DNA from: an uncultured bacterium
GTDB lineage: Bacteria; Patescibacteriota; Minisyncoccia; Phycocordibacterales; UBA6065
Assembly: GCA_963841935.1 (NCBI GenBank)
Contig: CAWJEP010000005.1
Coordinates: forward strand, 164,003-228,002
Length of the DNA stretch: 64,000 nt
Reading direction: 5' to 3'
Shown: positions 21,802 through 63,757 of the stretch, one piece after another
How the letters are laid out: every line of letters begins with the position of its first letter
How positions within the stretch are numbered: position 1 is the first letter of the stretch
The notes under the pieces: generated by a model
The model's database searches: none
What the model was told of the DNA's origin: nothing
The model's input: only the letters and a program-made list of their open reading frames with translations
Program-made: the position numbers and the translations under genes

Positions 21802-22758
21802 TTATCTTACGCCAATGGCTTTTCGCACGATTTCCATTTTCTTCTCGGCCGCTTCGCGAGCCCTATCGGCACCCTTTGCTAAAATTTTCAAAACTTTCTT
21901 CGGGTCGCGCGCGATTTTCTCCCTGCGCTCGCGAAGCGGCCGGATAAATGCGATGAGGTCGGCAATCAAAGTTTCTTTCAAATCCTTGTACTTGCCTTTC
22001 TTCTCCGCGTATAGTTTTTCAAGCTCGGCTTTCGAGCGGAAGAGTGAGTGAATGGCATAGACATTTTCCGGTCTTTCGCCGGAAGAATCTGTGACAATTG
22101 TCATAACAAATTTCCTTATTTCTTCATCTGTCGCGAAAAGTCCGAGGTCATTGCCGTAGCTTTTAGACATCTTCCGGCCGTCATTTCCGGGAACAACCGC
22201 GACGGTCGAGAGAATCAAATCGGTCGGCAATTTGAAAACTTCGCTGTGCGAAAGTTCTGTTGAATTTTTGCGCCGTGTCGCGCGCGTATTCGACATGTTG
22301 TTTTTGGTCCTGCCCCACCGGCACGACATCGGTGTCGTAAAGCAAAATATCCGCCGCCATAAGCATCGGGTAATTGAAAGTGCCGACAGAGATTTCCTTG
22401 TCTTTGGCTTCGGCGTTTTTGTAAGCGTGCGCGCGCATTAGATATGGCATCGTCGTGATGGTGTCGAATATCCAAGCAAGCTCGGTATGCGTCGAGAACG
22501 TCGGATTGTTTGAAGATTACAGACTTCTTCGGGTCGAGGCCGATGGCGAGATAGTCGATGGCGAGGTTCAAGATTAAGTTGCGCATTTCCGTCGCCGTTT
22601 TGAATGAGATTTAGTCCGTGATAATCGGCAATGAAAAAGTAGCAGTCGTATTTGTCCTGCAAGTCGACGAATTGCTTCATCGCGCCGAAATAATTGCCTA
22701 TATGCGGCCGTCCCGTCGGTTTGACGCCCGAAAGAAGGATTTTCTTAGCCATCGCCAA
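21802..22758 (-). pseudogene. trpS: Tryptophanyl-tRNA synthetase, fragmented into 4 reading frames by at least 3 short indels (about 22255, 22490, 22590)
   Basis: ORF pieces 22438-22758 (HIGH 'TGRPHIGNY'), 22215-22586, 22181-22450 and 21802-22329 ('KMSKS') read in order as one TrpRS of about 319 aa. Removing a single C near 22490 restores 'VLEHTELAWIFD'. Confidence 0.75.
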
Positions 22759-22773
22759 ATAATACCAAAAAAT

Positions 22774-46507: not shown

Positions 46508-49393
46508 CTAGTTTGGAACAATAAAATTTATTATTTTGTTTTTCACGTAAATTATTTTCGACGGTGTTTTTCCGGAGAGCCATTTCTCTAATTCCGACGC
46601 GGCAAAAGCGACTGCTTTTGCCGCGTCTTCGTCGGCATCCGCGGGCACCTCAATCACCGCGCGAACTTTGCCGTTTACTTGTACGGCAATATTTACTTTG
46701 GCGTCTTTGATAAACGCTTCATCCCACTTAGGCCAATCGGAAAGATGTATGGACTTTTTGTTTCCAAGCGAGCGCCATAATTCTTCGCTTATGTGTGGAG
46801 CGAAAGGCGCGAGAAGCTTCAAATAGCTCTCAAAATCGGCGCGAGCTATTGTCGGCACCTTGTCAAAAGCGTTTTGCAAAATCATAAGCGAACTTATCGC
46901 CGTGTTGAAACGCAAATTGGCGATGTCTTCGGTAACTTTCTTGATTGTTTTGTGTAAAAGCGTGTTTGTCGAAGAAAAAACAGCCTCTGGCGAGCGCGTA
47001 GTCTTAGCGGAGTCGGCGGAGCGCACAAGCGAGCCAGAGGCTGTTTTTTCGGAGACTTTCCACACGCGTTCGATGAACCGCCGCGAGCCAATCATACTGT
47101 CGGTGGACCATGCTATGGCTTGATCGAAAGGTCCCATAAACATTTCGTAAACGCGCAAAGTGTCGGCGCCGTATGTCGCGACTATGTCGTCGGGATTTAC
47201 GACATTGCCGAAACGTTTGGACATTTTTCTGCCGTCTTCGCCCATTATGAGTCCGACCGACTGCAATTTTTTAAACGGCTCGATTGTCGAGACAACGCCA
47301 ATGTCGTAAAGAAATTTGTGCCAAAAACGCGCGTATATGAGATGGCGTGTGGCGTGCTCGGCGCCGCCCACATAAAAGTCCACGCTGTTCCAATATTTTT
47401 CTTTTTTCGGAGAAACTAAAACCTTGGAGTCTTTCGGGTCCATATATCGCAAGTAATACCAAGAGCTCCCTGCCCATTGCGGCATCGTATTCGTCTCTCG
47501 TTTCATTCCTTTGAAATTGACCCATTTAGAAATCTCAGCCAAAGGCGACTCCCCCGTTCCCGTCGGTTCGTAATATTTCACTTTCGGCAATACCACCGGC
47601 AAATCTTTTTCCGAGACCGGCACTATTTTATTTCCGTTATGAAGCACCGGGATCGGCTCACCCCAATAGCGCTGCCGTGAGAAAACCCAATCTTTCAATT
47701 TGTATTTCGTCACCCATTTTCCGCCGGCTTTTTCGATGGCGTTCCTATCGGCAAACGGTTCGTCCTTTACGGGCAACTTGAACTTTTCCGCGAACGCCGC
47801 GTCTCTCTCGTCGTGTTTCGGCACTCCCATCACGGCTCCCGTGCCGTAATCGGCAAGGACATAGTCAGCAATCCAGACCGGCACCTCTTCCCCATTCACT
47901 GGATTTACCGCCTTGATTCCTTTCAATTCAACGCCGGTTTTTTCTTTCTTTGCGTCCGTGCGCTCAATTTCCGTTTTGATTCTCGCGGCGGCGACATATT
48001 TCACGACTTCTTTTTCGTTTTTCACTTCATGCAAAAGTTTTTCCACGAGCGGATGCTCCGGAGAAAGCACGACATACGTCACGCCGAAAAGCGTGTCTGG
48101 ACGAGTAGTGAAAACTTTTATTTTTTCCGTTTGATTTTTTATGGCGAAATCGATTTCCGCGCCTTCGCTTCGGCCAATCCAATTTCTCTGCGCCTCTTTT
48201 ATGGATTCCGGCCAATCAAGAAGCGGCTTCACAATATGGCGTGGCGCGCCGTCCATTACCAAATCCCAGCCGAGTTTCGAACCTTCGGCCGTCATTGCGT
48301 CACGAACTTTTTCCTCGGGAAGCCAAGTGACTTCGTGTTTGGCTTGTTCGTCAGCTACGACAGGAGCTTGTTCGCCGTCTTTTAGTTTGAAATAAAAAGA
48401 AGTGAAATGTCCGACGCGGTTTTCGTCTTTCGGCGGATGGAAAAATGTCGAGTGGTATTGACCGGCGCTTCTTTTCACGAGCGTCAGGTTTTTAAATCCC
48501 GTCTCTTCGAATATTTCCGCTCGCGCCGCTTCTTCCGGCGTCTGGCCTTTTTCGATGCCGCCAGTGATAGGAGTCGTCCAATCCACCTTTTTCCATTTGA
48601 GAACTATAAATTTCTTCTCCGACCAGTGTTCGACAAAAGCGCATATGGCGTTTCTCGGAACAAACGGCTTGTCCAATCTCACTTTGCCCGGAACATCGCT
48701 ATTCATATGGGTGATTCCAAATTCGCCATTCGGCAATGTCTCAAAAATGTCGCCGTTTGGCAAAACATTGGTGTCCAAGTCTTTCAAAAGTCTGTCGGCG
48801 TAATCGGTGATTTTCAAAACCCACTGGCGCATCGGTTTCTTCTCGACCGGCGTGCCGCAGCGCTCGCAGCGACCGTCTTCGACGTCTTCGTTCGCGAGGC
48901 CGGTCTTACACGACGGACACCAATTTATCGGCTCGTATGATTCGTAAGCCAAGCCTTTTTCCAAAAGTTTGAGAAAAATCCATTGCGTCCATTTGTAATA
49001 TTTCGGGTCGGTCGTGTTGATTTCCCTACTCCAATCATAATCAAAACCAATGATTTCCAGCTGTTTTTTGTACCTTGCGACATTTTTCGCCACGGCCACG
49101 ACCGGATTGGTCTTGGTCAAAATGGCGTAATTTTCCGCCGGCAAGCCGAAAGCGTCGAAACCCATTGGATGTAAGACGTTGTGCCCCTGCATCCTTTTCA
49201 TTCGGGAGACGATGTCGGTCGCGATGTAGCCCTTCGGATGGCCGACATGAAGACCTTCGCCCGAAGGATACGGAAACATATCGAGAACATAAAACTTGGG
49301 CTTGGGAGAATCATCCTTGGTCGCGTATATTTTCTTTTTCGCCCACCCCTTCTGCCACTTTTTTTCTATTTTCTTATGGTCGTATTGTTTCAT
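46508..49393 (-). CDS. leuS: Leucyl-tRNA synthetase carrying (i) an inserted NUDIX hydrolase domain and (ii) an in-frame palindromic-element insertion
   Basis: 'HVGHPKGY' HIGH motif, 'KMSKRFGN' and editing/anticodon domains. A Nudix box 'GGIEKGQTPEEAARAEIFEETGF' sits between '...LKDLD' and 'WPESIKEAQRNWIGRSEG'. Start is the ATG at 49393. Confidence 0.9.
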   Translation of the reverse strand: MKQYDHKKIEKKWQKGWAKKKIYATKDDSPKPKFYVLDMFPYPSGEGLHVGHPKGYIATDIVSRMKRMQGHNVLHPMGFDAFGLPAENYAILTKTNPVVAVAKNVARYKKQLEIIGFDYDWSREINTTDPKYYKWTQWIFLKLLEKGLAYESYEPINWCPSCKTGLANEDVEDGRCERCGTPVEKKPMRQWVLKITDYADRLLKDLDTNVLPNGDIFETLPNGEFGITHMNSDVPGKVRLDKPFVPRNAICAFVEHWSEKKFIVLKWKKVDWTTPITGGIEKGQTPEEAARAEIFEETGFKNLTLVKRSAGQYHSTFFHPPKDENRVGHFTSFYFKLKDGEQAPVVADEQAKHEVTWLPEEKVRDAMTAEGSKLGWDLVMDGAPRHIVKPLLDWPESIKEAQRNWIGRSEGAEIDFAIKNQTEKIKVFTTRPDTLFGVTYVVLSPEHPLVEKLLHEVKNEKEVVKYVAAARIKTEIERTDAKKEKTGVELKGIKAVNPVNGEEVPVWIADYVLADYGTGAVMGVPKHDERDAAFAEKFKLPVKDEPFADRNAIEKAGGKWVTKYKLKDWVFSRQRYWGEPIPVLHNGNKIVPVSEKDLPVVLPKVKYYEPTGTGESPLAEISKWVNFKGMKRETNTMPQWAGSSWYYLRYMDPKDSKVLVSPKKEKYWNSVDFYVGGAEHATRHLIYARFWHKFLYDIGVVSTIEPFKKLQSVGLIMGEDGRKMSKRFGNVVNPDDIVATYGADTLRVYEMFMGPFDQAIAWSTDSMIGSRRFIERVWKVSEKTASGSLVRSADSAKTTRSPEAVFSSTNTLLHKTIKKVTEDIANLRFNTAISSLMILQNAFDKVPTIARADFESYLKLLAPFAPHISEELWRSLGNKKSIHLSDWPKWDEAFIKDAKVNIAVQVNGKVRAVIEVPADADEDAAKAVAFAASELEKWLSGKTPSKIIYVKNKIINFIVPN
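46974..47050. repeat. Palindromic repeat element copy D inserted in frame within leuS (arms aaaaaacagcctctgg / ccagaggctgtttttt)
   Basis: Core gagcgcgtagtcttagcggagtcggcggagcgcacaagcgag. It is translated as ...KTASGSLVRSADSAKTTRSPEAVFS... in LeuRS. Confidence 0.8.
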
Positions 49394-49823
49394 TTTTAAA
49401 TTTGCGCAGAGCGAGATATATGAGTGCGATGAGAGCAATGCCGAGAATGACGACTCTCATCCAGCCGTAAGCCGACGACCAATATCTGAAAGACGCTATG
49501 ACAAGCGTGAGTATTCCGGAGAACGAAAGCGATGTGGAAACCACGGCATTTGTTTTCAAAAAGAAACTTAGGACGATGAGAATGACTCCGACGGCGACGA
49601 GAGTCATAAAGACTTCCGCCTGATAATTATTTTCCGCGGCGGTGTAATTATTTGAGCAAATGACATCGTTGGATTGCGGCGTAATAACGTCCGTTTGCGG
49701 GCAGAAATCGTTATATTGTGGCTCTTGGTAAATAAGCGAAAGAGAATAATTTATGAACATATTGGCGACGATGACGATGCCAATGATGAGCGACCATTTG
49801 AGAAGTTTTGATTGCTTTTGCAT
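49374..49823 (-). CDS. Hypothetical membrane protein (3-4 TM)
   Basis: Hydrophobic helices. It overlaps the leuS start by about 20 nt. Confidence 0.5.
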   Translation of the reverse strand: MQKQSKLLKWSLIIGIVIVANMFINYSLSLIYQEPQYNDFCPQTDVITPQSNDVICSNNYTAAENNYQAEVFMTLVAVGVILIVLSFFLKTNAVVSTSLSFSGILTLVIASFRYWSSAYGWMRVVILGIALIALIYLALRKFKNETIRP

Positions 49824-50316: not shown

Positions 50317-52062
50317 TTAGGAAAATCTCTGGTCTATATCGCCCATCTTTTTGTGAACGACTTTCTCTATGTCGCTGATGTTGTTCTTGAGGCGTTTAAT
50401 GAGCGCTTCTTCTTCGTTCGTAAGTGTCCGACGAGTTTTGGCGCGTTCCAAAAGTCGTATGTGGTCTTCAAGGTCTTCTTGAAGAACCTTAAACGAATTG
50501 TCAATGACGAATTCCGCTCCGTGTAATTCTTTGCGGAAATTTTTCTTCATCAGACGGAGTTTGTATGTCGCGAAAAAGACAAGAAATATAAGAAGGAATA
50601 TAAGAGCGAGGGTTGGAATGATGATGATTAGAGCATTCAAGGCGTACGAACCTATGACGAAGATAATGGGCGTGCTTACGATAACCACCACGCTTTGCGA
50701 AGGTAAACTTTTCGCCCCGCGACTGTCGGTCGCTACGGCATAGATAGTGTAAGCGCCGGATGTCAATGGTTTTTCAAATACCGCTGACCAACTGCCGCTC
50801 TTGTCCGAAGTAACTTGGTTGTCAATCGGAGTGTTGCTACCGCTTGTCGCAAAGACGTCAATGGTCACGTTGGGAAGAGCCGTTCCCGTGATTCTTACCA
50901 AATCGCCGTTTTTGGCCTGTTGCGGATACTCGGTAATGGAAGGAGTCGCAATGCCGACAACATTCACGTCAACGGAGGCGATGTCAAAGTTGCCGGCTCC
51001 GTCAAACACTTTACCAATAATGGAATGGTCGCCGGGAGCGAGAGGCCCCGTATTGTAGACACCGGTTCCGTCATCAACCCATTTGACCGGGTCGGCTTTG
51101 TCAATCTGAATCGTGTAATACGGCGTGCCGGAAATACTGTCCAAGGATGAAAGAGACAGCTGTACATTGGGGTCGGTCGGGTCGCTTCGCGGGATTTCTT
51201 TCATCACGAAAGATTCCGGCGGCGTGGTATCCACTTTTATGACGAAGTCCGATATGGCTCCCCAGCCATTCGCGTTTTCATCCTGTACGTGGAAATGCCA
51301 TACACCGGGTGTTATATCCGTTAGCTCTTTTGAACTTATGGCCGGCTTATAGACAACCGTCGGAACAGCATCCGACAACCTGCCGAAAAGAACCCGGGTG
51401 GCGATGGTGTCCGGTGAATTATTCCACGAGAGTTCGGCTGTCGTGCTCGTGTACCAATCGTTTTGGTTCGGATGCGTTGACGAAGTAATATTCGGAGCGG
51501 GTGGCGTGCCGGAAGAAGGAACAAAGGACGGCGTCGCCGGAACGACAACCTGACCGTTACTGGTTCCTAAAGTAAACGACGCGGAACCGATGGTCTTGAG
51601 AATGTTTGTCCCTTGTCCGTCATTGGCCAAAACCGACGCCGAAGAAAACGAGACTGGCGCCGAGCCGCCGGCGATAACTTTGAAATTGATAGTCGCGACG
51701 ACGGCGTCCGGACCTTGAAAACCGGGATTGGGAATTATACCCTCGAAGGAAACCGTGCCAGCGGCGTTTGAAAACGTCGGTTGGGTTACCCAAAGAGTCA
51801 CGACTGACCCAGTCGTTGAGACCGACGATACTTGCAGTTTATCCGTGGGAAAATTAATTAGACCGGAGACGGCGTTTATTGATTGGGCGGCGCTTGAAAC
51901 GACGACTTGAACCGAGAATGAATTGTCGAGATTGTATGTTCCACTTGACGGAGAAAGAATGAGAGAGTCGTCGGCGTAGACGACACTTGTTGACATTGCA
52001 AAAACCGCGAGAGAGACAACTAACGCGTAGAAAAACGCCGCGAATATATGAGGTACACGCAT
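50317..52062 (-). CDS. Surface protein: signal peptide, cohesin-like domain, Ig-like domains, C-terminal TM anchor and cytoplasmic coiled-coil tail
   Basis: The cohesin-like beta-sandwich 'LILSPSSGTYNLDNSFSVQVVVSS...ATINFKVIAGGSAPVSF' and a C-terminal 'IIIIPTLALIFLLIFLVFF' helix. Confidence 0.65.
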   Translation of the reverse strand: MRVPHIFAAFFYALVVSLAVFAMSTSVVYADDSLILSPSSGTYNLDNSFSVQVVVSSAAQSINAVSGLINFPTDKLQVSSVSTTGSVVTLWVTQPTFSNAAGTVSFEGIIPNPGFQGPDAVVATINFKVIAGGSAPVSFSSASVLANDGQGTNILKTIGSASFTLGTSNGQVVVPATPSFVPSSGTPPAPNITSSTHPNQNDWYTSTTAELSWNNSPDTIATRVLFGRLSDAVPTVVYKPAISSKELTDITPGVWHFHVQDENANGWGAISDFVIKVDTTPPESFVMKEIPRSDPTDPNVQLSLSSLDSISGTPYYTIQIDKADPVKWVDDGTGVYNTGPLAPGDHSIIGKVFDGAGNFDIASVDVNVVGIATPSITEYPQQAKNGDLVRITGTALPNVTIDVFATSGSNTPIDNQVTSDKSGSWSAVFEKPLTSGAYTIYAVATDSRGAKSLPSQSVVVIVSTPIIFVIGSYALNALIIIIPTLALIFLLIFLVFFATYKLRLMKKNFRKELHGAEFVIDNSFKVLQEDLEDHIRLLERAKTRRTLTNEEEALIKRLKNNISDIEKVVHKKMGDIDQRFS

Positions 52063-52895
52063 ATGCTTAATTCAAGAATTATTATAACAAAAATAATCAA
52101 GGCAAGTCGATGATGCGGTGCATAAACCATTTCAACGCGAATATTGCCTGATTTATCAACGGCTTTTACGTAAACCTTTTGGATGCCGGACTGATTGGAA
52201 AGCTCGTAAGGACTTGTTGCTATCTTCCAATCGCCCGCGCTCGGCGGAAAAAGGAATGTCTCGGCTATTTCAAAGTGGTCAATGCCGCTATCCTTATCCG
52301 TGGTATCAAACGAAACGAAATATTTTCCGCCAAATAAAGAATCGCTGCGCGAGATGAGCGGAGTAAACTGCTCCGGCGGGATAGTGTCGGAAATTTCCGC
52401 CCTCTGCGGATACTTGGCAACCGGAGCGATGGTGAAAGTAAGAGGTAAAGATGAAGCGGTTATTTCCGTACCAAGACCGTCGTTTTTCAAAAGAGTCATT
52501 TCGTCAACGGAAACCATGGCGTCGCCTTCCTTCTCGGCGCTAAACAGAAGAGTAAAGATTACTTGATGAGCTCCTTCCAGGCCGCCGGGAATGATTCCGG
52601 AGAAAGATATTTCGTTCGTCGTAGTCCCATATGTCGGACGTTCTATCCAAAGCGGCACGACGGAATTGTCGTATTCAATACCCTGGAAGGAAAGCGTGTC
52701 GGAGAAAGACACGGCACCGGAAAGAGCGTTCACCGAATCGTTGGCAGATGAGAAAGAAAGTGACGTGAGGAAACTGTCGCCTTGGTGAACTTGCGTTGCC
52801 GGCGCGTCAAAGCCGACAGACGCGGCGTAGATAAAGGCAAAAGGCGCCAAAAGAAAAATAAAAGTGAAAAATGAAATGTAAAAATTTTTATGCAT
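52020..52895 (-). CDS. Surface protein with cohesin-like domain and C-terminal TM anchor
   Basis: Signal peptide 'MHKNFYISFFTFIFLLAPFAFIYA', cohesin-like 'FLTSLSFSSANDSVNALSGAVSF...VIFTLLFSA' and a C-terminal TM 'LALIIFVIIILELSICVYLI'. Confidence 0.6.
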   Translation of the reverse strand: MHKNFYISFFTFIFLLAPFAFIYAASVGFDAPATQVHQGDSFLTSLSFSSANDSVNALSGAVSFSDTLSFQGIEYDNSVVPLWIERPTYGTTTNEISFSGIIPGGLEGAHQVIFTLLFSAEKEGDAMVSVDEMTLLKNDGLGTEITASSLPLTFTIAPVAKYPQRAEISDTIPPEQFTPLISRSDSLFGGKYFVSFDTTDKDSGIDHFEIAETFLFPPSAGDWKIATSPYELSNQSGIQKVYVKAVDKSGNIRVEMVYAPHHRLALIIFVIIILELSICVYLIYSRRFSTR

Positions 52896-52899
52896 AGTA

Positions 52900-54252
52900 T
52901 TATCCCGTCCAATGCGAGGCCATGATACTGAAGTCAACGAGGTCAACCTTGCCGTCACCGTTTAAGTCCGCCGACTTTGGCGGATTTGAACGATTAAACC
53001 AATACGCGAGAATGGAAAAATCAATGAGATTTACCTTACCGTCGCAGTTTATGTCTGATTTTATGCAAGCGGTGGAAACTGGTACTAAAACGTCTTGCGT
53101 GCCGACGGAGAAACCAACCGAGGCGCTAAACTCGCTTATATTGCCTTGAGTTGAGGATTTTGATTTCGTCGTGTGGTCGCCGTAGTCAAGCGGCGTGGTA
53201 TCAAGATTGTAAAGATAAATACCGCTTTTATCCGACGCGGTAACTCCAAAAAGGGTCTGGTCGGAATTTACTTGTATGGTAACCGTGCTTGAAGCGGATG
53301 TTTGCCCGAAAATAGCAAGATTGTCGCCTTTCTTAACCTCGCTTTTATCAACGGCAATGGTGGGAACGATGAAAATACTCCCAATGTTTGTCGTCACGCC
53401 GGATGTCACGCTTGCCGGAAACGTTAAGAGGTCGGAACGCCGTCCCGCGTTGTCGCTTCCATAAACGGAAAACAAATAATTTCCCGCCGGGACACCGCTT
53501 ACCTCTACTTGAAAATTAGCGTCGGCGTCGGCAATAGTGGAAGCGACAACTTGAGCATCTTCAAGAATCGTCACATCACTTGACGGATACGCCCGACCAG
53601 AAAAAATCACGTTGCCCATGCCGGAGGGAGTTGAATTATAATTTCCGCCGCCGCCCCCTCCACCACCTCCTCCGCCTCCACCTCCACCACCGCCTCCACC
53701 GCCGCCACCTGATGATGCCGGAGTCGCGGAGACCTCGGACGAAGTCGCGATAACATTGCTGAACGTGTCCAATACATCCACCACAAAATAGTAAGTCGTG
53801 CCATTGGAAAGACCTGTTTGCGCGTGAGAAAACGTGTTACCGACGGAAGTGAAAGAGTAAGGTCCGCCCGGCGTCGTCCCCTGCCCTATTGAATATCCGG
53901 AAATGCTAAGTCCGCTTCCGGCGGTTGCCGACGTCCAAGACAAAGATACTTGAGAATCGCCGGGAGTCGTCTGGACGACGGGCGAAGAAAAATAGGGAAA
54001 ATAAAGAAAACCACCTAGAACGTCAAAAGAGTTCCCCGTTGAGATGCCTATGGCCGCCTGGTCCATGGCTCCGAGCAATTCAAAACTATTGGACGAACTA
54101 TAATTCCCGGAGTTTATAATCGGATTACGGACTTGATAATCAGAGGAATAGAATGTTTGTGAATGAACGGGTTTTATGTTTAAAAAAAATGTGCCGGAAA
54201 TTAGCAATAAACAAATTAGAAAAAATTGTTTCTGTAAATTTTTAAAATACAT
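52900..54252 (-). CDS. Secreted protein with FN3/Ig-like domains, a (Gly)23 linker and a C-terminal type-I dockerin domain
   Basis: Two Ca-binding dockerin repeats 'DINCDGKVNLIDFSILAYWF' and 'DLNGDGKVDLVDFSIMASHW', a 23-Gly run and a signal peptide. Confidence 0.7.
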   Translation of the reverse strand: MYFKNLQKQFFLICLLLISGTFFLNIKPVHSQTFYSSDYQVRNPIINSGNYSSSNSFELLGAMDQAAIGISTGNSFDVLGGFLYFPYFSSPVVQTTPGDSQVSLSWTSATAGSGLSISGYSIGQGTTPGGPYSFTSVGNTFSHAQTGLSNGTTYYFVVDVLDTFSNVIATSSEVSATPASSGGGGGGGGGGGGGGGGGGGGGGNYNSTPSGMGNVIFSGRAYPSSDVTILEDAQVVASTIADADANFQVEVSGVPAGNYLFSVYGSDNAGRRSDLLTFPASVTSGVTTNIGSIFIVPTIAVDKSEVKKGDNLAIFGQTSASSTVTIQVNSDQTLFGVTASDKSGIYLYNLDTTPLDYGDHTTKSKSSTQGNISEFSASVGFSVGTQDVLVPVSTACIKSDINCDGKVNLIDFSILAYWFNRSNPPKSADLNGDGKVDLVDFSIMASHWTG

Positions 54253-54272: not shown

Positions 54273-55217
54273 TTATTGCGTCTGTCCGTCAGTGGTATCC
54301 GATGCGGTAGTTGTTTCAACAGTCGGCGCCGGCGTTTCGGTTGTGGATGTGGCCTCCAGCGTTGGCTCTTGAGTCGTATCCGAAGTTGACGTGGCGGTTT
54401 CCGAAGTCTCTGTTGAAGTTGTAGCCGTCGCGGTCGTGTAATCGGTTGCCGTTTCTGTAGTTGTCGCGGTTGCGGTTTCAGTTGTAGTTGCGGTTGAAGT
54501 TGTCGCGGTTGCGGTTGAAGTTGAAGTTACGGTTGAAGTTACCGTCGGTTCTTGCGCGGATTCCGTTTGAGATGAAGTCGGATTTGAAGTCTGGTTTACT
54601 TGGGATTCCGGGTTCGGAGTAGAAACTACGACCGATGTTTGCCTTGCTTCTACGGTAGCGGCAACTTCCGGAACGGCTTCCGGTATGACCGGATTATAAC
54701 CTTCTATGATTTCTGTTCTGGGATTCAAGAATTTTCCGATAAGGCCGGAATATTCCACCGTAACTACTTTTTGAGACGACCCTGCCGCTTCTTCCAGTTT
54801 CTGAACTCTTTTCAAAGAAGATAGTTCGTAGTTGATATTGTCACTCAACTCTTTTGCAACATAGAGCCCGAGGTCTTTATCGCCCAAAGCCGCCTTGCTT
54901 ACCGTCAAAGTTTTTTCTACCTGTTTTACCTGCCAGGCACCGTCAACAATTGCCAGCGTCTGATAGGAATAATCGGCATAATAATTTTTATCGTCATCGG
55001 TAATGGAATTTATCTTCAGATTGAAATTAAAGTTATCCAAATCGGTAGAAAGAATCAAACTATTATCCACGGAAGTCACTGCGGTTCTGCTGGAATATAT
55101 ACTATCGCGCGCCGTTGGGCTGGCGGCAAAAACTATTCCGGAACTAAAAAAACAAACGATAAAAACAATGGTAAAAGCGTTATTGTATTTTACGAAATTG
55201 AGAACTTTTTTATACAT
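54273..55217 (-). CDS. Secreted protein with a Thr/Ser-rich mucin-like C-terminal tail
   Basis: Signal peptide, then about 100 residues dominated by T/S/A/E ('TSTVTSTSTATATTSTATTTETATATTTETAT...'). Confidence 0.6.
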   Translation of the reverse strand: MYKKVLNFVKYNNAFTIVFIVCFFSSGIVFAASPTARDSIYSSRTAVTSVDNSLILSTDLDNFNFNLKINSITDDDKNYYADYSYQTLAIVDGAWQVKQVEKTLTVSKAALGDKDLGLYVAKELSDNINYELSSLKRVQKLEEAAGSSQKVVTVEYSGLIGKFLNPRTEIIEGYNPVIPEAVPEVAATVEARQTSVVVSTPNPESQVNQTSNPTSSQTESAQEPTVTSTVTSTSTATATTSTATTTETATATTTETATDYTTATATTSTETSETATSTSDTTQEPTLEATSTTETPAPTVETTTASDTTDGQTQ

Positions 55218-55259: not shown

Positions 55260-58200
55260 TTAACAATTCCAAATCACTCCGTTTATATCCATAATCGACG
55301 CGGCCGGCATTCCATTGACTGTTTTTATTGAAGTTTTATCGAGATTGTTTATTGTTTTTAGTTCCACGACGCAAACAGATGGGCTGACCGAAGGTGAGAT
55401 ACTCGGTGACGGGCTGACGCTTGGACTGGGAGAAACGCTCGGTGAAATTGACGGTGATGGACTGATTGATGGTGAAGCTGATGGACTTGGAGAAGTGCTC
55501 GGTGAGAGTGACGGTGAAAGTGACGACAAAGGTGACGGTGATATGGATGGCGATATCGATGGAGATTCGGATGGAGAGATAGATGGACTAAGAGACGGCG
55601 AAGGGCTGACGCTCGGTGACAAAGATGGGCTCGGACTGACAGATGGAGATACCGAGGGTGAAAGGCTTGGGCCGATGGACGGCGAAAGTGACGGCGAAAG
55701 TGATGGGCTGATACTCGGCGAGAGACTTGGCGAGAGAGACGGTGATGGAGAAACTGACGGGGAAACTGAAGGACTTAAACTTGGACTAAGAGATGGTGAG
55801 GGCGAAACCGAAGGAGAAATGCTCGGAGAAAGCGATGGTGAAAGTGATGGGCTCGGACTAACTGAAGGTGAAATGCTCGGCGAGAGAGACGGGCTGAGTG
55901 ACGGCGACAAACTCGGCGAAAGTGAAGGACTTGGAGATACGGACGGCGAAACGGACGGAGAAATACTCGGCGAGAGAGATGAACCAGCTGAAGGAGAAAC
56001 CGAGGGAGAGATACTTGGCGAAAGTGACGGACTTGGGGAAACGGACGGCGAAACCGAAGGTGAAATGCTTGGCGAGAGTGATGGGCTTGGCGAAACCGAC
56101 GGCGAAATACTCGGTGAAAGTGAAGGAGAAAGTGACGGAGACAAACTCGGCGAGAGAGACGGCGATGGAGAAACTGACGGACTAACTGAAGGACTTAAAG
56201 ATGGCGAGAGCGAGGGACTTGGTGAAGTCGAAGGTGAAACGCTTGGGCTAAGCGAAGGTGAAAGAGACGGCGAGAGACTCGGCGATAGACTTGGGCTCGG
56301 TGAAACTGAGGGTGAAACCGACGGAGAAATACTTGGCGAGAGTGAAGGGCTTGGACTAACCGATGGTGAAATACTTGGTGAAAGAGATGGAGACAAACTT
56401 GGCGAGAGACTCGGCGAAATGCTCGGGCTCGGTGAGACCGAAGGGCTGACTGATGGTGAGATGCTCGGTGAGAGTGATGGCGAAGGTGAAACCGATGGTG
56501 AGATCGATGGTGAGAGAGATGGACTAAGTGATGGAGAAAGTGATGGCGATATCGAAGGGCTTGGACTGACTGATGGTGAGACCGAAGGACTCAAACTCGG
56601 TGACAGAGACGGTGATGGCGAAACCGACGGCGAAATACTCGGTGAAAGTGAAGGAGAAAGTGACGGAGACAAACTTGGCGAGAGAGACGGCGATGGAGAA
56701 ACTGACGGACTAACTGAAGGACTTAAAGATGGCGAGAGCGAGGGACTTGGTGAAGTCGAAGGTGAAACGCTTGGGCTAAGCGAAGGTGAAAGAGACGGCG
56801 AGAGACTCGGCGATAGACTTGGGCTCGGTGAAACTGAGGGTGAAACCGACGGAGAAATACTTGGCGAGAGTGAAGGGCTTGGACTAACCGATGGTGAAAT
56901 ACTTGGTGAAAGAGATGGAGACAAACTTGGCGAGAGACTCGGCGAAATGCTCGGGCTCGGTGAGACCGAAGGGCTGACTGATGGTGAGATGCTCGGTGAG
57001 AGTGATGGCGAAGGTGAAACCGATGGTGAGATCGATGGTGAGAGAGATGGACTAAGTGATGGAGAAAGTGATGGCGATATCGAAGGGCTTGGACTGACTG
57101 ATGGTGAGACCGAAGGACTCAAACTCGGTGACAGAGACGGTGATGGCGAAACCGACGGCGAAATACTCGGTGAAAGTGAAGGAGAAAGTGACGGAGACAA
57201 ACTTGGCGAGAGAGACGGCGATGGAGAAACTGACGGACTAACTGAAGGACTTAAAGATGGCGAGAGCGAGGGACTTGGTGAAGTCGAAGGTGAAACGCTT
57301 GGGCTAAGCGAAGGTGAAAGAGACGGCGAGAGACTCGGCGATAGACTTGGGCTCGGTGAAACTGAGGGTGAAACCGACGGAGAAATACTTGGCGAGAGTG
57401 AAGGGCTTGGACTAACCGATGGTGAAATACTTGGTGAAAGAGATGGAGACAAACTTGGCGAGAGACTCGGCGAAATGCTCGGGCTCGGTGAGACCGAAGG
57501 GCTGACTGATGGTGAGATGCTCGGTGAGAGTGATGGCGAAGGTGAAACCGATGGTGAGATCGATGGTGAGAGAGATGGACTAAGTGATGGAGAAAGTGAT
57601 GGCGATATCGAAGGGCTTGGACTGACTGATGGTGAGACCGAAGGACTCAAACTCGGTGACAGAGACGGTGATGGCGAAACCGACGGCGAAATACTCGGTG
57701 AAAGTGAAGGAGAAAGTGACGGAGACAAACTTGGCGAGAGAGACGGCGATGGAGAAACTGACGGACTAACTGAAGGACTTAAAGATGGCGAGAGCGAGGG
57801 ACTTGGTGAAGTCGAAGGTGAAACGCTTGGGCTAAGCGAAGGTGAAAGAGACGGCGAGAGACTCGGCGATAGACTTGGGCTCGGTGAAACTGAGGGTGAA
57901 ACCGACGGAGAAATACTTGGCGAGAGTGAAGGGCTTGGACTAACCGATGGTGAAATACTTGGTGAAAGAGATGGAGACAAACTTGGCGAGAGACTCGGCG
58001 AAATGCTCGGGCTCGGTGAGACCGAAGGGCTGACTGATGGTGAGATGCTCGGTGAGAGTGATGGCGAAGGTGAAACCGATGGTGAGATCGATGGTGAGAG
58101 AGATGGACTAAGTGATGGAGAAAGTGATGGCGATATCGAAGGGCTTGGACTGACTGATGGTGAGACCGAAGGACTCAAACTCGGTGACAGAGACGGTGAT

Positions 58201-60012
58201 GGCGAAACCGACGGCGAAATACTCGGTGAAAGTGAAGGAGAAAGTGACGGAGACAAACTTGGCGAGAGAGACGGCGATGGAGAAACTGACGGACTAACTG
58301 AAGGACTTAAAGATGGCGAGAGCGAGGGACTTGGTGAAGTCGAAGGTGAAACGCTTGGGCTAAGCGAAGGTGAAAGAGACGGCGAGAGACTCGGCGAAAT
58401 GCTCGGGCTCGGTGAGACCGAAGGGCTGACTGATGGTGAGATGCTCGGTGAGAGTGATGGCGAAGGTGAAACCGATGGTGAGATCGATGGTGAGAGAGAT
58501 GGACTAAGTGATGGAGAAAGTGATGGCGATATCGAAGGGCTTGGACTGACTGATGGTGAGACCGAAGGACTCAAACTCGGTGACAGAGACGGTGATGGCG
58601 AAACCGACGGCGAAATACTCGGTGAAAGTGAAGGAGAAAGTGACGGAGACAAACTCGGCGAGAGAGACGGCGATGGAGAAACTGACGGACTAACTGAAGG
58701 ACTTAAAGATGGCGAGAGACTCGGCGATAGACTTGGGCTCGGTGAAACTGACGGACTGACTGAAGGACTTAAAGATGGCGAGAGCGAGGGACTTGGTGAA
58801 GTCGAAGGTGAAATGCTCGGCGAGAGAGAGGGCTGAAAGTGACGGCGAGAGACTCGGCGATAGACTTGGGCTCGGTGAAACTGAGGGTGAAACCGACGGA
58901 GAAATACTTGGCGAGAGTGAAGGGCTTGGACTAACCGATGGTGAAATACTTGGTGAAAGAGATGGAGACAAACTTGGCGAGAGACTCGGCGAAATGCTCG
59001 GGCTCGGTGAGACCGAAGGGCTGACTGATGGTGAGATGCTCGGTGAGAGTGATGGCGAAGGTGAAACCGATGGTGAGATCGATGGTGAGAGAGATGGACT
59101 AAGTGATGGAGAAAGTGATGGCGATATCGAAGGGCTTGGACTGACTGATGGTGAGACCGAAGGACTCAAACTCGGTGACAGAGACGGTGATGGCGAAACC
59201 GACGGCGAAATACTCGGTGAAAGTGAAGGAGAAAGTGACGGAGACAAACTCGGTGAAAGACTCGGCGAAAGACTTGGACTTGGAGATACGGAGGGTGAAA
59301 TGGACGGAGAAAGAGATGGAGAAATACTCGGACTAAGCGATGGACTAAGTGACGAAATAAACCATGTGATTTGAATGACTCCGTTTCCTCCCTGTCCTCC
59401 TGTGTTACCGTTTCTTCCCGACCCTCCACCACCGCCTCCATAGTTTGCTCCGTTAGCGCCAGTTGCGTTTACTCCTCCAGCTCCTCCGTTTCCGGCTGGA
59501 GTTCCCCCATTTGCTCCACCAGCGTGAGTTCCCGACCCATTCGCTCCGGTTCCTCCGTTTCCAGTGTTCCCGGCTCCTCCACCTCCTCCACCTCCGTTGT
59601 TGCTACCTCCGTTTCCTCCGTTTCCTCCGTTGTGTGACGTCCAAGTGACGACTCCGTTACCGGTTGTGTTGCTATTACCCCCGACTCCACGTGCGCCACC
59701 GGCGTTGCCTCCACCACCTCCACCGGCCGCCTCGATGATAAGAGTGTTGCCCGCAGTATTGAAAAATGTGGTTCCGCCAGCGCCGCCGGATGCGTTTGCG
59801 GTTCGTGTTCCGCCGTTTCCGGCGGAATAATTAAAAGCGATGTTCGGACCAGATATGGTTATAGTTGTCTGAGCCCAAGCGCCACCACCACCACCACTAC
59901 CGTTGTTGCCTCCACCACCTCCACCTCCACCTCCAATAACCTGAACAACCGCGGAAGTTGCTGTGGTGCTATTCCATGTACCGCTACCTGTAAGATTTGA
60001 TGTTGTCGCCAT
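55260..60012 (-). CDS. Giant (about 1580 aa) protein: Gly/Asn-rich N-terminal domain followed by more than 1100 aa of (S-P-S-L/I/V)n low-complexity repeat. Interrupted by one frameshift at about 58836-58850.
   Basis: ORF 58690-60012 starts with a non-repetitive Gly-rich domain and runs in frame into SPSx repeats. ORF 55260-58652 continues the same repeat. The repeat consensus gains +1 nt at about 58845. All neighbours are minus-strand. The plus-strand alternative (acidic GExxGE repeat, ORF 55315-58836) cannot be excluded. Confidence 0.55.
55400..59340. repeat. Tandem-repeat DNA: 12-nt (4-codon) units organised into 528-bp higher-order repeats (at least 4 near-identical copies at 56101-58212, plus partial copies)
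   Basis: 'accgaaggactcaaactcggtgacagagacggtgatggcgaaaccgacggcgaaatactc' recurs at 56581, 57109, 57637, 58165 (period 528) and again at 58561 (period 396). Confidence 0.9.
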
Positions 60013-60042: not shown

Positions 60043-61236
60043 CTACCGACTATCAAATGCTTTCCTTGTTTTATCTATAGACCATATATTTCCCGCTTCA
60101 TTTTCGCTGTATATATCAAATTCGAAAAGCGCGTCTTTGACACTCTGTCTATCAAAGTCATGTCCGCAAAGAATTTTTTTACACTTCGGATACCACGCGT
60201 TTAGGTCTCTTAAGACGGACTCTTTGTCATGAGCGCCGTCGATAAAGACCATGTCTATGGAGTTATCTTCAAAATGCTTCGCCGCCTCGGCGCTATCCAT
60301 TTTTAATATTTCGACGTTTTTGAAACCCGACATATTCCGTCTCAAATCCGATTCGGCGTCGGGATTAAATTTTGATTTCTGAGAGAAATTATCTACAAGT
60401 GTCACTTTCCCGGGACATCCGCTGGCGATGGCGTGACCGCTTTTTCCTTTCCAGCTTCCAATTTCAACGACCGATTTCATTTTTTTGGCCGTGAGATAAA
60501 GCCAGGTCATTTCCGACAAGAGCAAATACCCTTCTATTTTGGGGTCTTTATAATCGCTGATTTCCCAATTAGCCAAAGTTTTTATCATTCCTTTAACTTT
60601 TTGCTTGGTAGGTATTACATATTCATGCCACAGGTAGTTTCCTCCGGCGTTTATTTCCTGGGTCAGTTGTGTGACGGTTTTGAATTTCAACCCGTATTTG
60701 GCTATGTTTCTTGAAAGAGTGTAATCGTCAATGAGATGTTCCCGCGTAACAACTGTGTTTAACTCTTTCTGAATGGGAAAAATATTTCCAAGCGCCTCTT
60801 CGTAGGGAATATCAAGAGGGTGCCAGAGGTCAAGGCACCAATCCGAGGCAATGGTGAACCAGTTGCAAGAACCGATATTCCTGCCGTCACGGATGAAATA
60901 TTTGTCATAACGCGAACGGTTATTGGCCATGTCACAACCGTTATGAACCACGGTGTCTTTCTTGATAAAATTCGTCACATCAAAAAAATCCGGGTGAACC
61001 AGAGCGTCCGAGTCGATATAAATATTCCAATCGTTGCCCATTTTTTTGCCGAGCTCGTAAATTTGCAATTTTTCGTAAACCGGCGGCATATTTGGAAATT
61101 TGCGCTCGGAAATTATGTGGAAATCCGCTCCGATTTTCTCCGCGTAGCGTTTTATCAAGGGATAAGTAAGCTCTGTTATTTCCGGAGCGTAATTATCGAC
61201 GTTCAAAGTGAAAATTGTTTTTTTAAGTTTTGACAT
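60043..61236 (-). CDS. Putative GT-A-fold glycosyltransferase (DxD) fused to a C-terminal class-I SAM-dependent O-methyltransferase domain
   Basis: N-terminal half is paralogous to the next two genes ('KKTIFTLNVDNY...YEKLQIYELG...IDSD'). C-terminal 'VVEIGSWKGKSG...IDMVFIDGAHDKESV' is an O-MTase (Methyltransf_24-like) motif. Confidence 0.5.
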   Translation of the reverse strand: MSKLKKTIFTLNVDNYAPEITELTYPLIKRYAEKIGADFHIISERKFPNMPPVYEKLQIYELGKKMGNDWNIYIDSDALVHPDFFDVTNFIKKDTVVHNGCDMANNRSRYDKYFIRDGRNIGSCNWFTIASDWCLDLWHPLDIPYEEALGNIFPIQKELNTVVTREHLIDDYTLSRNIAKYGLKFKTVTQLTQEINAGGNYLWHEYVIPTKQKVKGMIKTLANWEISDYKDPKIEGYLLLSEMTWLYLTAKKMKSVVEIGSWKGKSGHAIASGCPGKVTLVDNFSQKSKFNPDAESDLRRNMSGFKNVEILKMDSAEAAKHFEDNSIDMVFIDGAHDKESVLRDLNAWYPKCKKILCGHDFDRQSVKDALFEFDIYSENEAGNIWSIDKTRKAFDSR

Positions 61237-61237: not shown

Positions 61238-61969
61238 TTATTTTATATAATTCCAATTTTTTAATTTCTCCCTGATTTTCTCGGCTCTGTCTTTTTCTTG
61301 AACCGAAAAATCATAATAAAAATATTCATCTCCGCCCCTTCCTATTTCATTGAGAAGGTTCACGAAAGTTTTGAATTTTATGCCGTATTTGGCGATATTT
61401 CTGCTTACAACGTAATCATCAATGCCTTGCTCATTGGTGTGTCCGGTCATTTCTTCACGGTGAATGATATTAATATTTTTGAGCGCTTCGGGAGCTGTCA
61501 TATCGTCAAGCGGTTTCCAAATCTCATGACATAGTGATGAAGCGACTGTTAGAAATGATGTGCTGTTTATATTTCTGCCGTCTCGTCTAAAGAAATTGTC
61601 GTAACTGAAACGGTTACCCGCGAAATCAACGCCGAAATTTAAAACCGTATCTTCTGGAAGAACTTCAGTTATGTCAAAAAGGTCCGGATGAACCAAGCAG
61701 TTCGGGTCGATGTAATAGTTCCAGTCATTATCCTTTCCAAGTTCGTAAATCTGAAGTTTTTCGTACATTACGGGGTAATTCGGAAACTTGCGTTCATTGA
61801 TTATCTTCAAATCCGCGCCAATTTTGTCTGCGAATCTTTTAAGAAAAGGTAAGGTAAGTTTCACTACTTCGATATCATAATTGTCAAAACCCAGCGTGAA
61901 AATGGTTCTCTTTAATTTTTTTTGTGGTTGGTCGGAGTACATATATAAATTATTAATTAATAACCCCAA
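61238..61969 (-). CDS. Putative GT-A-fold glycosyltransferase, paralog 2 of the tandem triplet
   Basis: 'KRTIFTLGFDNYDIEVVKLTLPFLKRFADKIGADLKIINERKFP...YEKLQIYELGK...YYIDPN' is paralogous to 60043-61236 and 61957-62649. Confidence 0.5.
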   Translation of the reverse strand: MGLLINNLYMYSDQPQKKLKRTIFTLGFDNYDIEVVKLTLPFLKRFADKIGADLKIINERKFPNYPVMYEKLQIYELGKDNDWNYYIDPNCLVHPDLFDITEVLPEDTVLNFGVDFAGNRFSYDNFFRRDGRNINSTSFLTVASSLCHEIWKPLDDMTAPEALKNINIIHREEMTGHTNEQGIDDYVVSRNIAKYGIKFKTFVNLLNEIGRGGDEYFYYDFSVQEKDRAEKIREKLKNWNYIK

Positions 61970-62649
61970 GAACTAATGCGTTCCTTTATTTCTTTGATTT
62001 TTTTTTCTTTGGGGATACCGAACTGGTGGTATATAAGCCCATAATCCTGTAAGCCCCTCTCGACGAAGACATCCCTTAGGGCCTTATATTTTAGGCCGTA
62101 TTTGGCGATATTTCTGGAAATAAGATAATCATCAATAAGATAATCGGGTGTGTAACCTATTAATTCTTCGTTGTGCCAAGGGTGGAAACGGCTGAATATT
62201 TCTTTCTTGGTCAGATCGGTAATCGGCTCCCACATTTCGCGACACAGATTTGAAGCGAACATCATACAACTTCCCATAGACACGTGTCTTCCGGCTCGCA
62301 AAAAATAATTGTCGAGCTCGTAGTGTCCCTCCAGAGGATTTACTCCCCATGTTGAAACAGTGTCGTTTGAAATAACCTCGGTGATGTCAAAAAGTTTGGG
62401 GTTAATCAAAACATCGCAATCAAAAAAAAGTCCCCAATCAATATCTTTACTCAGTTCGTAGATTTGAAATTTTTCGTAAATAACGGGATATTCCGGAAAT
62501 TTTCTTTTGTTAATTTCCACGAACTCGGCGCCGATTTTGTCGGCATACATTTTCATATATGGATAAGTAAGCTTGGTTATATCGTCAGCGTAACCATCAA
62601 TATTGAGGGTAAAAATCGTTTTCTTGATTTTTCTAGGTATGTCATTCAT
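61957..62649 (-). CDS. Putative GT-A-fold glycosyltransferase, paralog 3 of the tandem triplet
   Basis: 'KKTIFTLNIDGYADDITKLTYPYMKMYADKIGAEFVEINKRKFP...YEKFQIYELSK...FFDCD'. Start is the ATG at 62649. Confidence 0.5.
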   Translation of the reverse strand: MNDIPRKIKKTIFTLNIDGYADDITKLTYPYMKMYADKIGAEFVEINKRKFPEYPVIYEKFQIYELSKDIDWGLFFDCDVLINPKLFDITEVISNDTVSTWGVNPLEGHYELDNYFLRAGRHVSMGSCMMFASNLCREMWEPITDLTKKEIFSRFHPWHNEELIGYTPDYLIDDYLISRNIAKYGLKYKALRDVFVERGLQDYGLIYHQFGIPKEKKIKEIKERISSWGY

Positions 62650-62791
62650 ATTATTTCTTAATAATTTCCCATTAATTCCCCCGTTCACATAAAGAAAAGG
62701 CAAGTTTATTTTAGTAAACCCGTGAACATATTGTAGCATTTTTAAAATCGGACCTTACATTACGGCATCGCCTTCACTCAGACTCTGGATT

Positions 62792-63757
62792 TCATTTGAT
62801 TTTCTTGATTTTATCCAAATCTTCCTGTTTCCAACCATTTACCGGCCAGAACTTTTCCAAGAGCCAGGACATGGGATAGATTTGTTTCGGCCAATTATTA
62901 TCAAAAAATAAATTCCAGACTTTCTTTTTTGTCTTTTGAACTTCGCTCTCGTGTTGCGGATATGGGAACCCGAAATCCCCGCCTTGTGTCCTGAACATAT
63001 GGGCATACCAAGTTTTATGATTGACGAGTACCCTGCCACCGGAGAGCCATGTCTTTACGGCCACTTCTATTCCCTGATTGCCCCAGTTGCCGAGTTTCTC
63101 GTCGCAGATATTGAGCTCCCAGTATTTTTCGCGAGTCAGCATAAAGCATGAACCTTGGAGCGACAGCGTTTCGGTTAAACCCGTTTCTTCCAAATCTTTT
63201 TTATATCCCGGTCTTTTGGTGTAGTCGTTGAAATATTGAAAATGCGGTTCGGCGTCGAAACTGTACGAATTGCTTTGAGGCCTTTCCTTGCCGACCCATA
63301 TCATTTTTCTCCTCATGTGTTTTTCGTCTCCGCATTGTTCGCATTTCTTCGGTGTCGGACCTTGATACTTTTTCCAACCGCACTTGTAGCATTTCCAATC
63401 AAAGGCCCAGAGATTTCGCATGGTCGGCACCATGGTCACGTTGTCCCCGACTTTCTTGAAAGCTTCTATCATTTTGCGGTCAAAACCTTTGTCAAAAGCG
63501 CAGTGAGCGTCGACTTTCATCACGTATTTGGCCTTTGAAAGTTTGCAGGCGAGATTGGCCGTGGCTCTTTGACCAATGGATTCCGGGACATATATGACGT
63601 TTACCCTCTCGTTTTGGAGCACGGGCGGGTCGGCCCACTTCCCATCCAAGACGACTATGACCTCCGTATCGGCTTCTATGTTGGCCAAAATGTCCTCTAT
63701 GGTCCTTTGGAGGAACATTTCATTTCTGGCGGGTATAAGTATGGATAATTCTTTCAT
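62792..63757 (-). CDS. Family-2 glycosyltransferase with an inserted CxxC...CxxC zinc-ribbon
   Basis: 'LSILIPARNE...VVLDGKWAD...DAHCAF' is a GT2 signature. 'CYKCGWKKYQGPTPKKCEQCGDE' is an insertion. Confidence 0.7.
   Translation of the reverse strand: MKELSILIPARNEMFLQRTIEDILANIEADTEVIVVLDGKWADPPVLQNERVNVIYVPESIGQRATANLACKLSKAKYVMKVDAHCAFDKGFDRKMIEAFKKVGDNVTMVPTMRNLWAFDWKCYKCGWKKYQGPTPKKCEQCGDEKHMRRKMIWVGKERPQSNSYSFDAEPHFQYFNDYTKRPGYKKDLEETGLTETLSLQGSCFMLTREKYWELNICDEKLGNWGNQGIEVAVKTWLSGGRVLVNHKTWYAHMFRTQGGDFGFPYPQHESEVQKTKKKVWNLFFDNNWPKQIYPMSWLLEKFWPVNGWKQEDLDKIKKIK

Follow-up and report, generated by a model that had tools for sequence, protein, structure and literature searches.

In this study, we describe a minus-strand gene at positions 55260-60012 of a 64,000-nucleotide stretch of contig CAWJEP010000005.1 (hereafter the window), which belongs to an uncultured bacterium of the Patescibacteriota, and the glycosyltransferase cluster in which this gene lies. 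According to the list of open reading frames (ORFs) and a six-frame translation, the interval codes for MATTSNLTGSGTWN...GGNGVIQITW and, after it, for hundreds of SPS[LIV] tetrapeptides, and the translation bears out the Gly-rich head and huge Ser/Pro-rich stalk recorded in the initial annotation of this DNA. That annotation also took the frame to be uninterrupted, which it is not: two frames, rather than one ORF, cover the interval, separated by one surplus nucleotide at 58833. The gene is real, conserved, and poorly annotated, and we hold with moderate confidence that this minus-strand gene of a Patescibacteria-type genome codes for a three-part modular fibre that would be glycosylated and exported, and would display its head, in the manner of serine-rich repeat proteins (SRRPs). 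The features of the interval are listed below.

59362..60012, minus strand: head domain, residues 1-217 (Pfam PF21722 Gly_rich_2, AlphaFold model, Foldseek)
58834..59361, minus strand: first part of the (Ser-x)n stalk, ~176 residues of SPS[LIV], in the head frame (translation of ORF 58690..60012)
58833..58833, minus strand: extra G, a +1 frameshift, followed by 47 out-of-register codons to the stop at 58690 (translation, patch comparison)
55377..58832, minus strand: main part of the (Ser-x)n stalk, ~1,150 residues, shifted to frame +1 with respect to the head (ORF 55260..58652 together with the open frame upstream of it)
56149..58397, no strand assigned: perfect tandem array of a 528-bp (176-residue) unit, 4.26 copies at 100% identity (lag-528 identity profile, run detection, Tandem Repeats Finder)
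55260..55376, minus strand: non-repeat C-terminal tail of 38 residues (VCVVELKTINNLDKTSIKTVNGMPAASIMDINGVIWNC) and stop codon (corrected translation)
55315..58836, plus strand: antisense ORF of 1,173 residues, GExDG-like (ORF list)

The head ORF (58690-60012) runs from the ATG at 60012 for 440 residues, leaves the SPS register at ~58833 and terminates at 58690, and the SPS register resumes in frame +1 from ~58830 and reaches its stop at 55260. The break itself is the single surplus G at 58833, in the context CACTTTCA[G]CCCTCTC (minus-strand reading). Upon removal of this base, a single ORF of 1,583 residues is obtained, comprising the 217-residue head, a stalk of ~1,325 residues and the 38-residue tail, with ...GVIQITWFISSLSPS... 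as a predicted frame-corrected junction peptide. A patch of ~30 nt at 58833 deviates from the canonical 528-bp unit and, without the G, codes for SLSPSLSPSISP, and the 3.5 kb located 3' of it are undamaged and fully open in the SPS register down to the tail. Because this patch is still coding without the G and the downstream 3.5 kb are undamaged, the break is best regarded as an artefact or a very recent event; most likely, it reflects faulty assembly or consensus calling, or else a mutation of very recent date, not a designed feature, and the native gene is probably a single ORF. Programmed frameshifting or a two-gene design was considered and rejected, since orthologues without a break are known and only one base interrupts a patch that otherwise codes.

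In the corrected frame, the stalk measures 1,325-1,328 residues, depending on where the head/stalk boundary is set, and is composed of Ser (49.9%), Pro (27.1%), Leu (11.1%), Val (6.6%), and Ile (4.4%), with 286 SPS[LIV] units and just 13 residues other than S, P, L, I, or V. Its deeper rule is (Ser-x)n: alternate positions are 99.5% Ser, in a register that survives frequent SPSPS steps, and what stays constant in the stalk is the alternation of serine, not the SPS[LIV] unit. Periodicity is hierarchical, with protein lags of 4, 22, 44, and 176 residues and DNA periods of 66, 132, and 528 nt. Because the copies of the 528-bp array are 100% identical, its copy number is only as reliable as the assembly. 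The stalk is expected to be extended, roughly 0.4 µm long if polyproline-II-like.

As the initial annotation had pointed out, the plus strand of the repeat is open as well, and in low-complexity DNA of this kind frames that are open on both strands are no coding evidence per se; the substitution pattern within the repeat and the orthologues, by comparison, exceed what chance would produce. The four 132-nt sub-units of one 528-bp unit share 57-67% DNA identity, and the 184 codons that differ among them in the SPS frame divide into 170 synonymous and 14 non-synonymous cases, whereas the open antisense frame of the same sub-units yields 85 synonymous and 106 non-synonymous differences. Stalk serines are encoded by both TCN (416) and AGY (161) codons. 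Moreover, orthologues keep the non-repeat head and tail in frame with the serine repeat and on the same strand. Because of this substitution pattern and the position of the orthologous heads and tails in the SPS frame, the minus strand is the coding strand, as originally assigned. The opposing view, that the acidic GExDG-repeat ORF at 55315-58836 is the real gene, can point to an open frame of 1,173 residues, to a codon-usage score at least equal to the one obtained for the sense frame, and to automatic gene callers, which picked the antisense strand in related contigs: the gene calls recorded in L013-L021 and L102 (L-numbers are our labels for the loci and contigs compared) are antisense ORFs over the fibre gene, e.g. 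L017 11365-12639 minus and L102 3-749 minus. However, its sub-unit differences are mostly non-synonymous, it has no conserved non-repeat or flanking domain and breaks at the same 58833 indel, and in every orthologue it is the minus strand that carries the conserved head and tail. The probability of this view is minute and it is effectively refuted; the plus-strand ORF arises incidentally from the repeat and is not a gene. The codon-usage comparison suggested in the initial annotation was also carried out, with 17 window genes as the reference, and fails to separate the strands: the two frames score -0.09 and -0.01, compared with +0.01 to +0.14 for the eight reference genes whose values were printed, and because both frames are atypical, codon usage is uninformative on strand.

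The head matches Pfam PF21722 Gly_rich_2 with 37.7 bits (cut-off 24.3; E 2.9e-9) over profile positions 4-225 of 226. Its AlphaFold model, built from an alignment of 27 sequences (predicted local distance difference test, pLDDT, 93.3; predicted template-modelling score 0.89), shows a predicted tumour necrosis factor (TNF)-like beta-sandwich with a glycine-rich (polyglycine) lattice. In Foldseek searches of the PDB, the model best matches the tail tip of mycobacteriophage Bxb1 (9d93_Qb, E 4.2e-7) and the tail fibre of cyanophage Pam3 (7ypx, E 3.3e-6), both with probability 1.00 and template-modelling (TM) scores of 0.58-0.59. Like the extracellular glycine-rich domain of ALK/LTK (Pfam Gly_rich), the head appears to place a polyglycine lattice on a TNF-like scaffold, but that domain stands in a eukaryotic receptor tyrosine kinase context, belongs to another Pfam family and is a much weaker structural match (E 2e-3 to 1e-1, TM about 0.35). 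Also matched by the head-family profile are the Pam3 fibre and, from Flavobacterium johnsoniae, the protein RemZ, which is secreted and homologous to a gliding adhesin (PMC10994853). RemZ resembles the fibre in being a large secreted surface protein with an N-terminal Gly_rich_2-type domain; unlike the fibre, it carries a C-terminal domain of the type IX secretion system, lacks a serine-repeat stalk, and belongs to a different phylum and secretion system. Judging by the model, the head is a known binding-tip module that is N-terminal here. That it is a known Pfam domain with the fold of phage receptor-binding tips had been missed in the initial annotation, as had the alternating-serine invariant of the stalk.

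An exhaustive HMMER search of a representative library returned 194 head homologues (E<=1e-3) of very varied architectures; the best match among 1.8 billion representatives reaches 43% identity, and no SP-rich stalk occurs among the 150 best. PHROG and NCBIfam scans of the head gave no match, and neither did a tblastn search of 50,697 phage records. A word-indexed protein search produced six weak matches, as glycine words swamp it, and a metagenome scan with a four-sequence head alignment gave 600 pattern matches, none confirmed, and was replaced by a scan with the enzyme encoded upstream. A literature search for PF21722/Gly_rich_2, or for comparable serine-rich or glycine-rich fibres or adhesins of Patescibacteria (Candidate Phyla Radiation, CPR), found no papers.

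The fibre gene is the last of a co-directional cluster, whose members in the window are given here together with the gene on its other side.

62792..63757, minus strand: family 2 glycosyltransferase; the cluster extends beyond the window (Pfam Glycos_transf_2)
61238..61969 and 61957..62739, minus strand: two tandem GT-A paralogues, 53% and 45% identical to the GT-A domain of the next gene (sequence alignment)
60043..61236, minus strand: GT-A glycosyltransferase domain (residues 1-238) fused to Methyltransf_24, 30 nt upstream of the fibre gene (Pfam, GT-A model, Foldseek)
54273..55217, minus strand: 314-residue protein, hydrophobic segment at the N-terminus and tail rich in Thr/Ala, 42 nt downstream of the fibre gene (translation)

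The model of the 238-residue domain upstream of the fibre (pLDDT 89.5) adopts a GT-A fold, with A64R of chlorovirus PBCV-1 as its top Foldseek match (2p73, E 9.5e-7), and all 100 PDB matches at E<=1e-3 are GT-A enzymes (A64R, COLGALT1, UGGT, GT6, XXT1), several of which act on proteins. Within the family, which counts 1,819 homologues of this domain, D75 is invariant and D77 nearly so, in a YIDSD stretch. Since no Pfam, NCBIfam, or PHROG model matches it, the family is unnamed; tblastn against the same 50,697 phage records gave one match, in an unannotated marine virus. The chlorovirus protein A064R combines glycosyltransferase domains and a sugar O-methyltransferase in one polypeptide (PMC7826918), and the gene upstream of the fibre likewise joins a soluble GT-A domain to a methyltransferase. 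The glycan that A064R assembles in the cytoplasm is protein-linked; unlike the enzyme described here, which is only 13% identical to it, A064R contains two glycosyltransferase domains, and it works on N-linked glycans of the capsid. Another locus from the same genome as the window (L012) holds a cluster of 14 co-directional genes, including Methyltransf_21 and Methyltransf_24, and the same three-gene GT-A array is found in L002, L012, L013, and L017. In scans of the sequence, no terminator was found between the cluster genes and no tRNA genes were found; promoter-like sites are low-scoring (9-10 of 12), and terminator-like sites occur at chance level.

Related loci were fetched through this upstream GT-A enzyme, and the arrangement recurs in several lineages: GT-A genes are followed by a Gly-rich head fused to an alternating-Ser stalk.

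L001/L017-L021: stalk SSS[VP]; the L001/L017 head is 78% identical to the window head
L002, a Zambryskiibacteria-labelled metagenome-assembled genome: stalk SPS[VIA]; tail and downstream genes as in the window
L005, a closed Woesebacteria genome: stalk SPS[VI]
L013-L016: stalk S[AP]S[VLA]
L026, L027: the same arrangement of GT-A gene, head and alternating-Ser stalk
L071, 1368-4502: near poly-Ser stalk with periodic Arg (SSSSSSRSSSS...)

In L001/L017, L002, L005, L013, L026, and L027, head, stalk, and tail are kept in this frame. The search for homologues with the same N-terminal Gly-rich domain, proposed in the initial annotation, thus succeeded, and two gene-spanning contigs carry an intact single-ORF orthologue, of 790 residues in L013 and 2,264 residues in L026; as far as the sequences indicate, these intact ORFs show that the architecture is made as one protein. 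The protein from L026 (11216-18010) contains globular inserts between its serine-repeat blocks. While the stalk motif drifts by lineage (SPS[LIV], SSS[VP], SPS[VIA], S[AP]S[VLA], or poly-S), alternating Ser is kept in all, at 96.8% in the L013 stalk, a pattern suggesting that selection preserves strict alternation in the different lineages and lets the residues in between drift. The proposed connection with a glycosyltransferase cluster also holds, as the upstream genes have the GT-A fold and, in all related loci seen, stand before the fibre gene; each lineage has one to three GT-A paralogues immediately upstream of it. Among 80 metagenome loci, 14 have a Gly-rich head ORF directly downstream of the GT-A gene, and in about ten for which coordinates were compared, the head ORF starts within ~160 nt of that gene. 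Downstream, the window and L002 share a membrane-associated protein (314 and 271 residues, respectively) and then dockerin-type proteins, whereas L005, L013, and L026 have a small tail paralogue and then TatA/TatC. Short-read contigs usually stop inside the repeat; because contigs end there and gene calls are antisense, the family is nearly missing from protein databases. Exact look-ups of the 440-residue ORF, the plus-strand ORF, a 466-residue neighbour and a fragment of the tryptophanyl-tRNA synthetase (TrpRS) gene of the window matched no record.

The closest functional parallel is offered by the SRRPs of Gram-positive bacteria, in which serine-rich repeat (SRR) domains with alternating Ser form O-glycosylated rods presenting an N-terminal binding region, and O-glycosylation takes place in the cytoplasm by locus-encoded glycosyltransferases (PMC6973325). 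Like SRRP adhesins (Fap1, GspB, PsrP, SraP, and the SRRPs of Lactobacillus reuteri), the fibre has a putative binding domain near its N-terminus, a very long, length-variable alternating-Ser region of the SRR-2 kind, and glycosyltransferase genes in its locus, and the role proposed for its stalk is likewise that of a rod projecting a binding region (PMC6973325). In contrast to them, it lacks the long signal peptide of the accessory Sec (aSec) system (about 90 residues), the AST domain, SRR-1 and a C-terminal LPXTG; no secA2/secY2 or gtfA/gtfB was seen among the ~30 larger window ORFs scanned; its partner enzymes are the distinct unnamed GT-A family and methyltransferases; its intervening residues are Pro and Leu/Ile/Val instead of Ala/Val/Thr/Glu; its head has a different fold; and its organism is of Patescibacteria type. 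By analogy, the fibre would work like an SRRP without being a member of the SRRP family.

On this basis, we infer that the stalk is glycosylated and that the product is exported, surface-located, and adhesive. The head, with the Gly_rich_2 fold found at the distal receptor-binding tip of phage tail fibres, would be carried by ~1,325 residues of strict (Ser-x)n, x cycling between Pro and Leu/Ile/Val, and the short lineage-specific C-terminal segment would probably anchor or dock the fibre. With the fibre gene placed last in a co-directional cluster of predicted soluble GT-A glycosyltransferases and S-adenosylmethionine-dependent methyltransferases, the stalk serines would most likely be O-glycosylated in the cytoplasm with methylated sugars, by a mechanism like the one known from serine-rich repeat adhesins of Gram-positive bacteria. 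The glycosylated product would then be exported, and the stiff stalk would keep the head off the cell to meet a partner cell or surface. A fibril or hair that is probably O-glycosylated, as first suggested, accordingly stays the best reading, in this conditional form; the S-layer role suggested alongside it found no support.

Several observations, which concern the frame, export, and the role of the GT-A enzymes, weigh against this reading. Regarding the frame, the extra G is present in the given sequence; independent contigs from the same run are 100% identical to the window wherever they overlap it, so the assembly is not generally error-prone; and a second fully spanned orthologue, that of the closed L005 genome, is likewise interrupted twice and split into three ORFs. 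Together with the proneness of long perfect repeats to mutation, these points would fit a genuine frameshift, which would leave a recent pseudogene, or a truncated 440-residue product with 3.5 kb of repeat untranslated. This alternative is set against a downstream region that shows no decay and is open to the conserved tail, against the intact orthologues, and against the essential TrpRS gene of the window (21802-22760, minus strand), in which three frameshifts fall within a stretch of 400 nt. The Logan contig L103, an independent assembly of the same run that is 100% identical to the window, ends at 22615, inside the first of these breaks; because the TrpRS frameshifts are clustered where the independent assembly breaks, this contig does contain local consensus errors or mixed strains. 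In this gene, which is of the tryptophanyl/tyrosyl type, the frame passes 0->1->2->0 at ~22601-22629, 22489-22511, and 22236-22267. As for the L005 gene (Woesebacteria CP066693.1), its three ORFs arise through two -1 shifts, at 12976 and 13479, both located at CCCCTCAATTGGAGTAAGTGCATCACC, with differing sequence upstream and an identical block that starts exactly at each break; from their sequence, they look like repeat mis-joins or a duplicated lesion. Taken together, we regard a genuine frameshift as rather unlikely.

With respect to export, the fibre lacks a signal peptide, a twin-arginine (RR) motif, an LPXTG motif, a transmembrane segment, and a hydrophobic C-terminus. It opens MATTSNLTGSGTWN straight into the head, with no hydrophobic N-terminus and a low hydrophobicity maximum, and the orthologues are alike in this; no secA2/secY2, sortase, or Tat genes were detected in the window (Pfam scan of the ~30 larger ORFs, and tblastn for TatC). 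Because the fibre contains no export or anchor signal, export and anchoring are unexplained, which is the main gap of the modular-fibre reading. The window tail, which gives no Pfam or PHROG match, shares 46% identity with its counterpart in the L002 orthologue, which is encoded in the same frame, and a motif search finds the tail motif only in these two. Another tail type, that of L005/L026, has only sub-threshold Pfam matches to DUF7360, in the L026 tail and its small paralogue. In three orthologous loci (L005 15106-16499, L013 13624-15376, and L026 18039-19416), the fibre gene is followed by a ~66-residue paralogue of the fibre C-terminal domain and then by TatA and TatC, with two TatA copies in L005, two in L026, and four in L013. 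The Tat genes beside these orthologues are a lead, not evidence. L013/L014 (3250-3678) additionally carry two small homologues of the L005/L026-type tail (45% and 42% identity) upstream of the glycosyltransferase cluster, the fibre there having a tail of a different type.

The third group of observations concerns the enzymes. GT-A genes of this family also stand beside Gly_rich_2 proteins without a serine stalk (L004 9280-10732, L008 9602-10925, L048, L051, L052, L061, and L063), so that the enzyme may serve the head or something else, not the stalk; the pair of GT-A and Gly_rich_2 genes appears older and wider than the fibre. Such loci, together with the missing export signal, are what one would expect if a real full-length protein were made whose stalk is an unglycosylated, disordered, or intracellular spacer, the GT-A enzymes acting on an envelope glycan, the head or another substrate. 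That alternative seems improbable to us, as alternating Ser is apparently selected across lineages, in a pattern otherwise known from O-glycosylated SRR rods, and the fibre gene always immediately follows GT-A/methyltransferase genes.

In L004 and L008, the gene pair is surrounded by genes for phage structural proteins (PHROG families for virion structural protein, head-tail adaptor, minor tail protein, and tail fibre), which raises the question of a phage-derived structural part, such as a prophage tail fibre or a tailocin-like particle, released by lysis and not displayed on the cell. The predicted head fold matches phage tail-fibre tips, the fibre has no signal peptide, and the tail and small downstream paralogue of L005/L026 resemble modular fibre parts. 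The head shares with the tips of Pam3 (gp24) and Bxb1 (9d93_Qb) the same TNF-like sandwich with a glycine-rich lattice and the same Pfam-level family, a module that in phages recognises the host receptor. Unlike those fibres, however, the tip is N-terminal (residues 1-217) instead of C-terminal, it is fused to the 1,325-residue serine stalk with no helical baseplate-docking shaft, and no gene resembling the Pam3 gp25 chaperone was recognised beside it. Its neighbours are glycosyltransferase, methyltransferase, dockerin, leucyl-tRNA synthetase (LeuRS), and sigma-factor genes, with no phage genes nearby. The window is cellular chromosome, containing LeuRS, HisRS, AlaRS, DnaK/DnaJ, RpoA, FtsW, and a sigma factor, and the ORFs scanned are housekeeping and envelope genes with no phage structural genes among them; none was seen either in the ORFs of L002, L005, and L026, as judged by inspection of their translations only. 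Furthermore, the head lacks a PHROG family and a cultured-phage record, and the synteny with the glycosyltransferase cluster is conserved across several Patescibacteria lineages, as for a cellular operon. A phage origin of the product is accordingly held to have little probability; the fibre carries the fold of a phage receptor-binding tip, yet is not in a phage.

Beyond the 314-residue neighbour, the surroundings of the fibre gene bear out one part of the cohesin/dockerin neighbourhood described initially: Pfam finds Dockerin_1 in 52900..54252. The other part found no such support, as no cohesin domain was matched by Pfam in 52020..52958, 50317..52062, or their L002 counterparts, and the neighbourhood is absent from L005, L013, and L026, where TatA/TatC occupy this place. 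The 314-residue protein itself has no Pfam, PHROG, or NCBIfam match and adjoins a fibre gene elsewhere only in L002; its ~100 terminal residues are almost pure Thr/Ala/Ser/Glu, and the dockerin protein (52900-54252, minus strand) holds an uninterrupted run of 24 glycines, low-complexity linkers thus being concentrated in the operon of these two. Separately, the LeuRS of the window (46508-49438, minus strand; 976 residues) carries a NUDIX domain (Pfam E 7.4e-12) at residues 286-382, between its catalytic core and editing domain.

More broadly, and only tentatively, we propose that Patescibacteria (CPR) episymbionts possess an unannotated class of host-contact fibres, in which a phage-type receptor-binding tip, captured as the N-terminal domain, would be held on an alternating-Ser stalk of ~0.2-0.7 µm, glycosylated in the cytoplasm by a dedicated, unnamed family of GT-A enzymes and methyltransferases, with folded export aided in some lineages by TatA/TatC and tail paralogues. 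If this is true, the class has stayed invisible through repeat-broken assemblies and antisense gene calls. A warning for annotation follows from the same loci, whose orthologous DNA codes for heads 78% identical to that of the window, yet the best match in protein databases reaches only 43%. Serine-rich-repeat glycoproteins have so far been linked with Firmicutes and the accessory Sec system; their design would also be extended to a distant lineage with other enzymes and no recognisable export signal. How Patescibacteria recognise and attach to their partner cells is largely unknown, and this locus provides a concrete, testable candidate for host contact; if the proposal holds, these fibres would be candidates for the molecules deciding which host cell such ultra-small bacteria attach to.

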